A stretch of 64,000 bases of DNA, taken from a virus (Duplodnaviria; Caudoviricetes). This document shows positions 490 through 6,656 of the stretch, in pieces. Below the pieces are notes generated by a model that was given only the letters and a program-made list of their open reading frames with translations, searched no databases and was not told where the DNA came from. The stretch spans positions 1,233 to 65,232 of the IMG/VR virus record IMGVR_UViG_3300030202_001434, one strand, 5' to 3'. How positions within the stretch are numbered: the stretch's first letter is position 1; every line of letters starts with the position of its first letter. A program made the translations under genes and the position numbers.

Positions 490-728
490 ATGTAAAAGGA
501 ACTTATGTCATCATTGACGATATGGGGTGTTATGAAATTGAAGTAGACTATGAGTACTACCACAAAGCCCCCACACATTATGACCCGTTCGAGGACAGGT
601 TAGATATTAAAGAAGTACGTTTAAACGGAGTGGATATGACTAAATTTTATTGGGACTATCTTAACGAAGATATGTTCGATGAAGTTTATCAGTATGCTTA
701 TGATAATAGATATGTAAAATATGAGTAG
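486..728 (+). CDS. hypothetical acidic early protein
   Basis: ORF track; ATGA overlap with previous gene. Confidence 0.7.
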   Translation: MNVKGTYVIIDDMGCYEIEVDYEYYHKAPTHYDPFEDRLDIKEVRLNGVDMTKFYWDYLNEDMFDEVYQYAYDNRYVKYE

Positions 729-993
729 AAAAAAAGAAGTTAAAACAGAGTACAGATACTCTGACTACAGAGGTAGTGAAATTATCTGGTCAACAGAAGA
801 CATTGAGGCGATCGCTGAAGAATTAGGGATTACTTATTTAGACTTTGATGACTATGATAAAATTCTGCACGATACATTTAAAAACTATGGTGTAGACATT
901 ATGGACTCCTTGCGTGATTGGTTTGTAGCACAGACATGGAATCATGCAAAGGCTTTACAAGTAGAATATAATAAAAAAAATAAAGATGAATAG
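721..993 (+). CDS. hypothetical early protein
   Basis: ORF track; overlapping start/stop. Confidence 0.7.
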   Translation: MSRKKEVKTEYRYSDYRGSEIIWSTEDIEAIAEELGITYLDFDDYDKILHDTFKNYGVDIMDSLRDWFVAQTWNHAKALQVEYNKKNKDE

Positions 994-4247: not shown

Positions 4248-6656
4248 ATGCAAATAACTATATTTAAAGATATTAAAGAAACTTCTCAGCCTTTTTATAG
4301 AAATGTAGAAATAATAATTAAAAGAATTAGAGAAGGTTCATCAAAAGATCTTATTAAAAAAATTAGATCAGAAAGGAATAAAGACAATATAAATAGATTA
4401 AAACAAAAACTTCCCGCAATTTGTTTTAGTGGTACATTCAATAAAAGAAACGACAATTCATTAAAAGAACACAGCGGTTTAATTTGTTTAGATTTTGACG
4501 GATATCCATCTAACAAAGCAATGTTAATGGAAAAAGAAAAGCTTAGTAAAGACAAATATGTTTATTGTGTTTTTATATCACCAAGCGGAAAAGGTTTAAA
4601 AGCTTTAGTTAAAATTCCTGCTGACCCAGAAAATCATAAAAATTACTTCAATAGTTTAGAAGAGTATTTTAATTCAGAATATTTTGATAAAACCTCAAAA
4701 AATATATCAAGAGTTTGTTATGAATCTTACGATCCTTTAATACATGTCAATCATAATTCAAATACATGGGATCAAATTTATGAAGAACAATACACTGAGG
4801 TTGAAAAGAATGTAGATTTACCAACTATACCTATCACAGATGAAAATAAAATTGTAGATATACTTACTAAGTGGTGGCAAAAAAAATATCCAATGGTTGA
4901 GGGACAAAGAAACCATAATGTTTATGTTCTTGCGTCTGCATTCAATGACTTTGGTGTTTCAAAAACTTTAGCCGAGTATGTTTTAAATAGCTACGCTAGT
5001 CGAGATTTTAATAAAACAGAAATTAAAAGAACAATAACATCTGCTTATCAGCAAGTTCAGAACTTTGGTACAAAGTATTATGAAGATGAAGAAAAGGTTG
5101 ATAAAGTTAGAGCTAAATTAAAAAGAGGAGTTCCAAAAAAAGAAATCCGATCTGAATTAGAAGATTCGAAAATTGAGATCGGGGTTATTGATAATGTTAT
5201 TACTCGAATCGAAGAAGAACAATCGAACTCTAAGTTTTGGACACAATCTGACAAAGGTGTAATAAAAATTGTACACATTTATTTTAAAAATTTTTTAGAA
5301 GAACATGGGTTTTATAAGTTTAATCCACAAGGAAGCAAGAATTATGTATTTGTTAAGGTTACTAATAATTTAATTGATCATACATCTGAAAAAGAAATAA
5401 AAGATTTTATACTTAATTATTTAATTGATCTAGATGAATTTCAGGCATATAACTACTTTGCCGAAAACACACGGTATTTTAGAGAAGAGTTTCTAACCTT
5501 ACTATCTTCTATTGATGTTTATTTTATCGAGGATACAAAGACTACAGCGTATCTTTACTTTAATAATTCTGCTGTTAAAATTACATACGACTCTATTACA
5601 GCAATAGATTATTTAGATTTAGGTGGTTATGTTTGGAAAGATCATGTAATAGACAGACCCTACATAAAATGTGATTCTACTGATTGTGATTATAAAACAT
5701 TTATCAATAACATATGCGGTAATGAAGATAGTAGGATTAAATCTATGAAGTCTACAATAGGATATCTTTTACATGCATGGAAAAATTTATCTTACTGCCC
5801 TGCAACTATTTTAAACGATGAAGTAATTTCAGATAATCCTGAAGGTGGAACAGGTAAAGGATTGTTTATGAACGCTTTGTCACATATGAAGAAATTAGTT
5901 GTGATTGATGGTAAATCTTTTAATTTTGAAAAAAGTTTTGCTTATCAGCTTGTAAGCGCTGACACACAAATACTTTGTTTTGATGATGTTAGCAAGCATT
6001 TTAATTTTGAAAGGTTATTTTCTGTGGTGACAGAAGGATTAACTTTAGAAAAGAAAAATAAAGATGCAATTAAAATACCTTTCAGCAAATCTCCTAAAGT
6101 GTGTATAACAACAAATTATGCTATAAAAGGTAAAGGGAGTTCGTTTGAAAGAAGAAAATGGGAGCTAGAATTAGCTCAACATTATACGAAAGAGTTTACT
6201 CCCTTAAAAGAGTTTGGTAAATTAATGTTTGGCGAATGGAATGAAGATGAATGGTGTAGCTTTGATAACTTTATGATCGAATGTTTGCAAATTTATCTAG
6301 ATCATGGTTTGATCAGAAGTCAGTTTGTTAATTTAAAAATCAGAAGATTGTCTGCTGAAACATGTCATGAATTTATTGAGTGGTGTGGATTGGTTAAAGG
6401 TTTGCCCCCTAACGAAAAGTTAGTAGTAAATAAAAAAATATATAAGCAAGAGTTGTACATGGATTTTATAGAAGACAATCCAGACTTTGCGCCTAAAGCT
6501 AAAATGACAGTCTCTAGAATAAAATTTAATAAGTGGCTTATTGCTTATAATCAATTTAAATATGATTGTGATCCTGAAGAAGGTAGAGATACTTCAAGAT
6601 GGATAAGGTTCAGGCATAAACAAGAATTAGAAGTTAACGGAGAAATAGAATTTTAA
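4248..6656 (+). CDS. primase-helicase (BT4734/VirE-N primase-like domain, PriCT, SF3-type helicase)
   Basis: LPAICFSGTF, SGLICLDFD, FISPSGKGLK, EGQRNHNVY; Walker A EGGTGKGL; Walker B ILCFDDV; ITTN. Confidence 0.85.
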   Translation: MQITIFKDIKETSQPFYRNVEIIIKRIREGSSKDLIKKIRSERNKDNINRLKQKLPAICFSGTFNKRNDNSLKEHSGLICLDFDGYPSNKAMLMEKEKLSKDKYVYCVFISPSGKGLKALVKIPADPENHKNYFNSLEEYFNSEYFDKTSKNISRVCYESYDPLIHVNHNSNTWDQIYEEQYTEVEKNVDLPTIPITDENKIVDILTKWWQKKYPMVEGQRNHNVYVLASAFNDFGVSKTLAEYVLNSYASRDFNKTEIKRTITSAYQQVQNFGTKYYEDEEKVDKVRAKLKRGVPKKEIRSELEDSKIEIGVIDNVITRIEEEQSNSKFWTQSDKGVIKIVHIYFKNFLEEHGFYKFNPQGSKNYVFVKVTNNLIDHTSEKEIKDFILNYLIDLDEFQAYNYFAENTRYFREEFLTLLSSIDVYFIEDTKTTAYLYFNNSAVKITYDSITAIDYLDLGGYVWKDHVIDRPYIKCDSTDCDYKTFINNICGNEDSRIKSMKSTIGYLLHAWKNLSYCPATILNDEVISDNPEGGTGKGLFMNALSHMKKLVVIDGKSFNFEKSFAYQLVSADTQILCFDDVSKHFNFERLFSVVTEGLTLEKKNKDAIKIPFSKSPKVCITTNYAIKGKGSSFERRKWELELAQHYTKEFTPLKEFGKLMFGEWNEDEWCSFDNFMIECLQIYLDHGLIRSQFVNLKIRRLSAETCHEFIEWCGLVKGLPPNEKLVVNKKIYKQELYMDFIEDNPDFAPKAKMTVSRIKFNKWLIAYNQFKYDCDPEEGRDTSRWIRFRHKQELEVNGEIEF
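5135..5210 (+). promoter_or_regulatory. putative -1 programmed ribosomal frameshift signal
   Basis: A_AAA_AAA 5135-5141; stem CCGATCT 5147-5153/AGATCGG 5176-5182; loop GATTCGA 5163-5169 pairs with TCGAATC 5204-5210. Confidence 0.6.

Follow-up and report, generated by a model that had tools for sequence, protein, structure and literature searches.

Programmed -1 ribosomal frameshifting that shortens a replication protein is best exemplified by E. coli dnaX, the source of tau and gamma (PMC5009743, in the passages available). There, a slippery heptamer of the A_AAA_AAR type is followed a few nucleotides downstream by a stem-loop, and the shifted frame reaches a stop within a few codons. Because the shifted ribosome stops so soon, frameshifting there yields the shorter of the two proteins, without the C-terminal domains. 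The locus described here, in the primase-helicase gene of a complete, uncultured marine phage of 65 kb, resembles dnaX in all of these respects, and the predicted product would be shorter for the same reason. It differs in that dnaX has A_AAA_AAG and an upstream Shine-Dalgarno-like stimulator, whereas here A_AAA_AAA dominates and an upstream GGAG is unconstrained. The gene family and the host group are also different, and a pseudoknot is possible in some clades.

Other described systems share part of this design. IS3-family transposases and the coronavirus ORF1a/1b junction combine a heptamer, a short spacer, a long stem 1, and a stem 2 formed between the loop and downstream sequence, as does the candidate pseudoknot considered here (11 pairs in stem 1, 7 in stem 2, and a connecting loop of 21 nt). 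However, their shift extends translation into a long -1 open reading frame, whereas here it would truncate the protein, and stem 2 has support only in some clades. Gene 4 of phage T7 likewise yields two products from one replication gene, with primase and helicase joined or not, but it does so through an internal start, the short form being a helicase without the zinc finger; here, it is the primase part that is predicted to be made, by frameshifting. The order of AEP primase, helical domain, and P-loop helicase recurs in ASFV C962R PrimPol, poxvirus D5/E5, and the NrS-1 polymerase. Foldseek matched our protein to these (E 2e-4 to 5e-2) and to RepB', although the matches are weak (TM 0.1 to 0.2, from a model with a pLDDT of 63) and are used for general architecture only.

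We found no report of frameshifting in a phage primase-helicase in the main-text passages covered on frameshifting and on this protein family. This agrees with a prior reading of the DNA letters (the sequence-only reading), which knew of no such description for the family. In the parts accessible, PMC5009743 does not mention primase, PMC3711429 mentions neither primase nor helicase, and PMC5862659 does not mention frameshift; PMC7581432 does so once, irrelevantly. Recoding in ASFV PrimPol, D5/E5, or NrS-1 is likewise not mentioned in the titles of the matched PDB entries or in the partial literature passages retrieved with other search terms.

Elements of the candidate cassette

Based on its Pfam matches, the 802-aa open reading frame is laid out as a BT4734-like AEP primase, a PriCT-1-like helical domain, and a DUF5906 P-loop helicase region (Table 1). 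The primase and helicase assignments of the sequence-only reading were borne out by BT4734-like_N (PF08800; E 3.3e-22, 79.5 bits versus a cutoff of 22.4, residues 51 to 163) and DUF5906 (PF19263; 30.8 bits versus a cutoff of 27.6, residues 532 to 627), and the primase residues D82 and D84 do not vary among 46 sequences. Its PriCT call proved borderline: PriCT_1 (PF08708) scores 20.4 bits, just below the cutoff of 21.1, and residues 213 to 272 are therefore named PriCT-like only. An AlphaFold model, of low confidence (mean pLDDT 62.9; residues 517 to 660 below 50), places the slippery site at a turn that joins two of the three helices in a linker rather than at a clean domain end. The hairpin element falls in this interdomain linker, which is sequence tolerant. 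The primase/helicase of Flavobacterium phage elemo has only residues 1 to about 285 in common with this protein, then diverges, and has no KK site, so it is uninformative for the cassette.

Table 1. Features of the primase-helicase locus (positions in the window, i.e., the whole 64,000-nt stretch of phage DNA analyzed)
Feature	Position	Strand	Basis
Primase-helicase ORF, 802 aa	4248..6656	+	ORF list, translation, Pfam, full-length match to phrog_28855
Slippery heptamer A_AAA_AAA	5135..5141	+	Sequence; zero-frame AAA at 5136 and AAA at 5139 are K297 and K298
Spacer, 4-5 nt, heptamer to first paired base	5142..5146	+	MFE structures
Stem-loop	5147..5182	+	Fold of -13.2 kcal/mol (ViennaRNA)
Stem 1	5147-5153 with 5176-5182; 5155-5158 with 5171-5174	+	Complementarity and ViennaRNA fold
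-1 frame TGA stop, end of predicted 302-aa product	5153..5155	+	Sequence
Pseudoknot stem 2 (candidate), 5' arm, in hairpin loop	5163..5169	+	Complementary to 5204-5210
Pseudoknot stem 2 (candidate), 3' arm	5204..5210	+	Complementary to 5163-5169

In the zero frame, the seven A's are divided as A_AAA_AAA, as claimed beforehand, because two codons of the gene start at its second and fifth bases; it is thus an X_XXY_YYZ heptamer. In-frame slippery heptamers by themselves are meaningless here, since a crude set of 57 ORFs in the window contains 201 of them in which Y is A or T. Among these 201, the present site comes first by downstream folding energy (-13.4 kcal/mol) and first again relative to synonymous-codon resampling (z -5.85). 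The -1 frame reads AAA AAA AGA AAT CCG ATC TGA, so that the predicted short product has 298 + 4 aa, a mass of about 35 kDa, and the C terminus ...KKRNPI, as had been proposed. Among the 57 of 81 first-set sequences with A_AAA_AAR, the -1 tail is 2 to 11 codons long, except for two of 30 codons; over all 81, the range is 0 to 19 codons, apart from the same two.

The arms of stem 1 are CCGATCT and AGATCGG, extended by AATT and AATT beyond a G5154/G5175 mismatch and closed by an apical loop (5159-5170). ViennaRNA returned the same hairpin that the sequence-only reading had drawn, and its distance from the heptamer and its stability give the geometry of a canonical -1 cassette. A 48-nt hairpin segment is modestly unusual relative to dinucleotide shuffles (z -2.24; 6 of 200 shuffles as good), and longer stretches are unremarkable (z -0.39 for 74 nt and -0.47 for 81 nt). 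Rfam gave no match for 4900-5500 at E <= 1. An upstream Shine-Dalgarno-like stimulator of the dnaX kind was not found: the GGAG at 5127-5130 lies only 4 nt upstream of the heptamer, and its codons are without synonymous constraint (synonymous O/E 1.23 and 0.98). The probable host group, the Flavobacteriia, is thought to use Shine-Dalgarno pairing little.

Selection on the heptamer and hairpin among relatives

The slippery site is under selective pressure at the nucleotide level. The heptamer A_AAA_AAA or A_AAA_AAG is kept in 121/187 relatives. Synonymous O/E at its two Lys codons is 0.28 and 0.40, these codons being AAA in 74/80 and 68/74 sequences compared with 67% AAA gene-wide. Of all 5-codon windows in the gene body, the one at 5130 has the second-lowest synonymous O/E (0.54). 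The KK dipeptide is also conserved as protein. The codon that precedes AAA AAA varies (TCA, CCA, ACA, GCA) and ends in A in 68 of the 70 hairpin-bearing relatives scored at this position. An antisense ORF, 5078..5278(-), 66 aa, was considered and rejected, as it is open in only 23/123 relatives; there is therefore no overlapping gene to explain the constraint.

Folding of the 42-nt window that follows the heptamer depends on whether the heptamer is present. Relative to the gene's own windows, the mean z is -2.90 with the heptamer (n = 36) and +0.06 without (n = 18); the corresponding values are -2.93 and -0.07 against synonymous-codon resampling, and -2.31 (n = 82) and -0.41 (n = 41) against composition-preserving shuffles. 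In many deep clades, a hairpin directly after the heptamer is under nucleotide-level selection, and its stem has undergone compensatory changes. The stem occupies the same position but differs in sequence between clades, and in deep clades synonymous sites are largely randomized. Core pairs 5150/5179, 5151/5178, and 5152/5177 take several Watson-Crick types across relatives (up to four), and in one clade three consecutive pairs have changed on both sides in a compensatory manner, with amino acid replacements as well. The exact stem 1 of the sequence-only reading is not universal: only 65.8% of the pairs named there are formed over all 40 distinct sequences tested, and those with two-sided change equal the shuffle mean (10 versus 9.9). 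Clades use different stems. The spacer measures 3 to 7 nt in 54 of 68 hairpin-bearing relatives and 0 to 1 nt in the other 14, the latter below the 5 to 9 nt usual between a heptamer and its structure.

Coupling between heptamer and hairpin was assessed in 187 relatives of <95% nucleotide identity, with a hairpin defined as a fold of dG <= -9 kcal/mol starting 0 to 7 nt downstream. It is present in 101/121 relatives with A_AAA_AAR compared with 5/66 without the heptamer. By heptamer type, the counts are 90/108 for A_AAA_AAA, 11/13 for A_AAA_AAG, and 1/1 for A_AAA_AAC; for variants outside the X_XXY_YYZ pattern, they are 2/18 for T_AAA_AAA, 0/2 for C_AAA_AAA, and 1/15 where both Lys codons are kept but the first is AAG (A_AAG_AAA type). 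On these counts, the variants that carry a hairpin follow the X_XXY_YYZ rule. A preference for A_AAA_AAA would be expected in hosts that have a CUU isoacceptor of tRNA-Lys. Among 18 phylogenetically independent pairs, about 9.8 changed in the same direction, 0.2 in the opposite direction, and 8.0 showed no difference (sign test, median p 0.004; 0.039 with the z criterion). An earlier test on 54 sequences, with 6 to 8 pairs and p about 0.6, was underpowered, and the set was therefore enlarged to 187 from further scans of viral contigs. Synonymous O/E, resampling, covarying pairs, and coupled loss together indicate that heptamer and structure are kept beyond coding needs. The alignment of homologs that had been suggested as a check thus returned low synonymous diversity at the heptamer, compensatory changes downstream, and joint gain and loss, and the concern that homologs might lack the heptamer or the pairing was not realized.

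The evidence for stem 2 is confined to part of the family. Its arms, GATTCGA and TCGAATC, are fully complementary, as the sequence-only reading had pointed out, and the loop-to-downstream duplex is strong (-9.4 kcal/mol, z -4.0 versus resampled downstream codons). The nearest clades have compensatory versions of it, and another clade has one displaced by 2 nt; elsewhere it is absent. Family-wide conservation of the pseudoknot did not hold up, since the 3' arm is paired in 58% of cells over 40 distinct sequences, and loop-downstream pairing in the 68 hairpin-bearing relatives has z <= -2 in 20 and z >= 0 in 20. The hairpin of this phage, like that of the clades closest to it, is probably part of a larger H-type pseudoknot.

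Proposed frameshifting and competing explanations

We consider it likely, with a probability of about 0.6, that this phage primase-helicase gene contains a dnaX-type cassette for programmed -1 ribosomal frameshifting, as first suggested from the letters. The elements are present, selected, and coupled; the ribosomal shift itself, the share of ribosomes that would take it, and whatever the short protein may do are inferred. Most ribosomes would read through to give the 802-aa AEP primase-PriCT-helicase. A fraction would slip back one base on the heptamer, where the hairpin beginning 4 to 5 nt downstream, probably extended to the pseudoknot in this phage and its nearest clades, would pause the ribosome. 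Shifted ribosomes would stop four codons on, producing a 302-aa primase-plus-PriCT protein without the helicase, and the signal may in this way set the ratio of free primase to primase-helicase.

It is possible, though unlikely, that the hairpin and A run form a selected nucleic acid element with some other job, to which the in-frame A7 would belong without acting as a shift site. Candidate jobs are mRNA stability or processing, a pause in translation of the linker, and replication by way of a single-stranded DNA hairpin; the origin of phage lambda, for example, is located inside gene O. Selection is evident for the structure and not for its use, the linker position would suit such an element, and the strand assignment of the hairpin is mixed. 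In this phage, both strands of the site fold better than shuffles (minus strand, -10.5 kcal/mol, z -2.56), and in 24/31 relatives from a GC-richer clade the fold of the complementary strand is equally good or better. However, another job does not predict the frame-specific pattern, in which an A is required before AAA AAA and A_AAA_AAG is tolerated but T_AAA_AAA and A_AAG_AAA are not. Stem columns, moreover, hold 113 G.U pairs and 39 A.C pairs, an excess of about 3 to 1 for the sense strand, and no Rfam family matches.

We regard it as improbable that the gene harbors an intrinsic terminator of minus-strand transcription, even though the minus strand does present a hairpin followed by AUUUC and seven U's, and a terminator would also account for the A-run constraint. 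The minus-strand fold of this phage and the greater stability of that strand in the GC-richer clade fit this explanation, but in that clade the segment from stem to U run (the 5-nt spacer and the last stem base) is not U-rich. In 42 of 43 AT-rich relatives, it is the mRNA strand that folds better, the minus-strand hairpin being much weaker (-8.0 versus -12.4 kcal/mol). Relatives with T_AAA_AAA largely lack the hairpin, although a terminator should tolerate U6. The site also lies about 5 kb past the convergence point of two transcription blocks, and a consensus terminator scan did not call the hairpin, which its loop limit of 3 to 8 nt would exclude anyway.

Slippage of RNA polymerase on A7, as opposed to ribosome slippage, is very improbable as the source of a shifted product. 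Runs of A are known slippage sites, and in the available text of PMC5009743 transcriptional slippage in bacteria involves 9 or more A's; 10% frameshifting is reported for an A7 cassette in the accessible part of PMC3711429. Seven A's are short for this mechanism, the downstream RNA hairpin would have no role in it, and most of the six-A relatives (A_AAA_AAG) keep their hairpin. DNA contigs from three runs, each from a different study, show neither a change nor an indel across 5135-5210, an observation that concerns DNA only, as the sole RNA contig spans 5222-5398, 3' of the slippery site. Chance, in which Lys-Lys in an AT-rich genome becomes AAA AAA and the hairpin comes by descent or follows from the protein sequence, could draw on the abundance of in-frame heptamers, the conserved KK, the nonindependence of relatives, and the 54-sequence phylogenetic test, but is hardly credible in view of the synonymous resampling, the differing compensated stems in deep clades, and the significant independent-pairs test in the 187-relative set.

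Distribution and implications

On balance, we lean toward a dnaX-like -1 frameshift in the AEP primase-helicase gene of a large group of uncultured marine podophages, whose hosts are probably Flavobacteriia; it would release free primase-PriCT beside the helicase-linked enzyme. Clades would each have rebuilt the hairpin or pseudoknot, and the cassette would have been lost many times. The state of the heptamer changes 22 times on the tree, and 66 of the 187 relatives are without it, so the device is dispensable.

If the frameshift reading is correct, the AEP primase-helicase class of replicases would have its first described recoding signal, and a phage replication enzyme would join the short list of genes with truncating frameshifts, of which dnaX is the classic case. 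It would suggest that these phages need free primase besides helicase-tethered primase, and the relatives would offer a natural series of differing stimulatory structures on one slippery site. Truncating frameshift sites are invisible to screens for ORF fusions; covariation of heptamer and structure across metagenomic relatives offers a practical means of finding them. Annotation of a second, 302-aa product would be warranted only after experimental proof. Entries for an N-terminal fragment of the NrS-1 polymerase of 300 residues exist in the PDB, according to their titles.

Primase-helicase gene and candidate frameshift site

A conserved -1 frameshift cassette, which would yield a truncated primase-PriCT protein, is consistent with the sequence evidence, and we assign this reading a probability of about 0.6. 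The proposed primase-helicase cassette would work like that of Escherichia coli dnaX (tau/gamma), but in a different gene family, and the literature searched (supplements aside) contained no report of a frameshift cassette in this one. The window covers bases 1233-65232 of the virus record, which is 65,232 bases long, carries direct terminal repeats, and is rated complete. No tRNA genes were found in the window, in which plus-strand ORFs extend to ~10.06 kb and are followed by a long minus-strand block (10.3 to ~54 kb) containing ORFs of 1860 and 1714 aa. The host is probably a member of the Flavobacteriia, given that the top cultured-phage matches, all of them partial, are to phages of Flavobacterium, Cellulophaga, Polaribacter, Nonlabens, and Maribacter.

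Features of the primase-helicase gene and of the candidate site
Feature	Location	Strand	Basis
Primase-helicase ORF, 802 aa	4248..6656	+	ORF list and translation
BT4734-like_N (archaeo-eukaryotic primase family)	residues 51-163		Pfam, E 3.3e-22
PriCT_1 (borderline)	residues 213-272		Pfam, 20.4 bits vs cutoff 21.1
DUF5906	residues 532-627		Pfam, 30.8 bits vs cutoff 27.6
Heptamer A7, A_AAA_AAA register	5135-5141	+	sequence reading
TGA after KKRNPI in -1 frame (predicted 302-aa product)	5153-5155	+	sequence reading
Stem 1	5147-5153/5176-5182	+	sequence reading
Stem 1 extension	5155-5158/5171-5174	+	sequence reading
Loop and downstream complement (proposed stem 2)	5163-5169/5204-5210	+	sequence reading

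The protein is matched over its full length by phrog_28855, and the BT4734-like family is counted among the AEP primases (PMC5862659). In an AlphaFold model (pLDDT 62.9), K297 and K298 lie at a turn between helices 281-293 and 297-305, which are part of a linker of three helices that follows the PriCT-like domain. The 619-aa primase/helicase of Flavobacterium phage elemo (2986-4845 of locus L081, its GenBank record) has only the first ~285 residues in common with the window protein and then a different C-terminal half, which suggests that the primase-PriCT part behaves as an exchangeable module ending just before the proposed shift site.

The heptamer, the short -1 reading frame with its stop, the stem, and the loop complement described in the sequence-only reading are all present in the sequence as claimed. 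The hairpin has a predicted dG of -13.2 kcal/mol (ViennaRNA). Against dinucleotide shuffles, the 48-nt hairpin gave z -2.24 (6 of 200 shuffles were as good) and the 74-81-nt stretch a z of about -0.4; taken alone, this single-sequence evidence is weak. Among the 201 in-frame X_XXY_YYZ heptamers in the window's 57 crude ORFs, the site comes top in downstream energy and also in synonymous-resampling z (-5.85). Rfam gave no match at the site. Near-identical DNA is present in marine, seawater, and sponge metagenome runs from several studies, and the contigs of three metagenome runs contain no change or indel in 5135-5210.

Conservation and coupling of heptamer and hairpin

Scans of viral_contigs plus one GenBank record provided 466 loci with one long ORF each, representing 228 distinct sequences, 187 of them below 95% nucleotide identity; the earlier analyses were run on smaller sets of 81, 54 (below 92% identity), and 123 sequences. 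Only these identity filters removed rows, and L081, with its different C-terminal half, was left out. The long ORF of two relatives, L032 and L051, is shortened near the C terminus to 724 and 730 aa, which the remaining 78 members of the first set do not show; sequencing errors or real truncations could be the cause. Only 23 of 123 relatives keep open the antisense ORF that overlaps the site (5078-5278, minus strand, 66 aa), so it is probably not a gene.

The slippery heptamer is constrained, judging from codon usage among these relatives. A_AAA_AAA or A_AAA_AAG occurs in 57 of the 81 sequences of the first set; in those 57 the -1 tail is 2-11 codons long except for two tails of 30 codons (over all 81 it is 0-19 codons long, the same two excepted). 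The two lysine codons are AAA in 74/80 and 68/74 sequences, the top values among 51 conserved lysine columns, compared with 67% of lysine codons gene-wide. Synonymous diversity between pairs of sequences amounts to 0.28, 0.40, and 0.49 of expectation at the codons AAA, AAA, and GAA, and the 5-codon window at 5130 has the second-lowest synonymous diversity in the gene body. Among hairpin-bearing relatives the residue before the lysines differs (Ser, Pro, Thr, Ala), yet the last base of its codon is A in 68 of 70; across the gene, 42% of four-fold Ser, Pro, Ala, and Thr codons have A in third position.

Hairpin and heptamer occur together. In the 187-sequence set, a dG of -9 kcal/mol or lower is found in 101 of 121 sequences with A_AAA_AAR and in 5 of 66 without. 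By variant, the hairpin accompanies A_AAA_AAA in 90/108, A_AAA_AAG in 11/13, A_AAA_AAC in 1/1, T_AAA_AAA in 2/18, and C_AAA_AAA in 0/2, and is present in 1/15 where KK is kept with AAG as the first lysine codon, a pattern that would be expected if both tRNAs must re-pair in the -1 frame. The two T_AAA_AAA exceptions of the 123-sequence set, L045 and L138, adopt other folds. On the tree of the 187 sequences there are 22 changes of heptamer state; for 18 independent pairs taken along supported branches, the hairpin changed the same way in ~9.8 and the opposite way in 0.2, the other 8.0 showing no difference (median sign-test p 0.004). Under the criterion z <= -2 the split was 6.0 to 0.3 (p 0.039), and the test on smaller sets gave p 0.02 in one and about 0.6 in another.

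The hairpin itself is under nucleotide-level selection. For the 42-nt segment beginning 5 nt past the heptamer, sequences with and without the heptamer gave z -2.90 (n=36) and +0.06 (n=18) against the gene's own windows, -2.93 (n=36) and -0.07 (n=18) against the same peptide with resampled synonymous codons, and -2.31 (n=82) and -0.41 (n=41) against composition-preserving shuffles. Synonymous diversity within the stem is not reduced, because clades use different stems. In one clade, three adjacent pairs have changed on both sides in a compensatory way, altering the protein as well (Ser to His; Glu-Ile to Asp-Asp), another takes its hairpin from an adjacent segment and has a spacer of 1 nt, and in a GC-richer clade the Arg codon CGC pairs with a downstream GCG. 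In the common register (68 sequences), pair 5150/5179 is A-T in 29, C-G in 19, G-C in 5, and T-A in 4. The exact structure first drawn for this phage fares less clearly in a formal count over 40 distinct sequences: pairing (65.8% of cells vs 59.4% in shuffles and 25-51% with slid partners) and covariation (0.239 vs 0.158) exceed the shuffles, but pairs changed on both sides are just as numerous as in the average shuffle.

Strand of the element and the proposed second stem

On the minus strand the element reads as a hairpin followed by U's and resembles a terminator. The window's own minus strand is also structured, and in the GC-richer clade the minus strand is the better folder in 24 of 31 relatives; in that clade, however, the segment between U-run and stem is not U-rich. 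Among AT-rich relatives the plus strand is more stable in 42 of 43 (-12.4 vs -8.0 kcal/mol, with a small background bias), the stem columns hold 113 G.U against 39 A.C, and the hairpin is lost in U6 variants, which speaks against a terminator; overall, the evidence on strand is mixed.

The sequence-only reading had also proposed a pseudoknot, which is plausible for this phage but not a family-wide feature, since the signal is confined to a few clades, that of the window included. In 68 hairpin-bearing relatives, the loop-to-downstream duplex energy compared with resampled downstream codons gave a mean z of -1.19; z was -2 or lower in 20 relatives and 0 or higher in another 20. A second clade uses a different 8-nt complement offset by two positions, and a third a 6-nt complement elsewhere. 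In the nearest relatives within the window's clade, pairs are kept through D/E with I/L changes and synonymous Ser/Arg changes. With loop lengths of 4, 1, and 21 nt, such a pseudoknot would in our judgement be sterically acceptable.

Two other sites in the window may be recorded. A consensus scan marked a near-perfect palindromic hairpin at 1351-1373, terminator-like on both strands. A second in-frame A7, at 729-735, lies right at the beginning of ORF 721..993(+) and has a stable hairpin within about 40 nt downstream (42-nt dG -12.1 kcal/mol, synonymous-resampling z -3.8); it is third of the 201 heptamers by energy.
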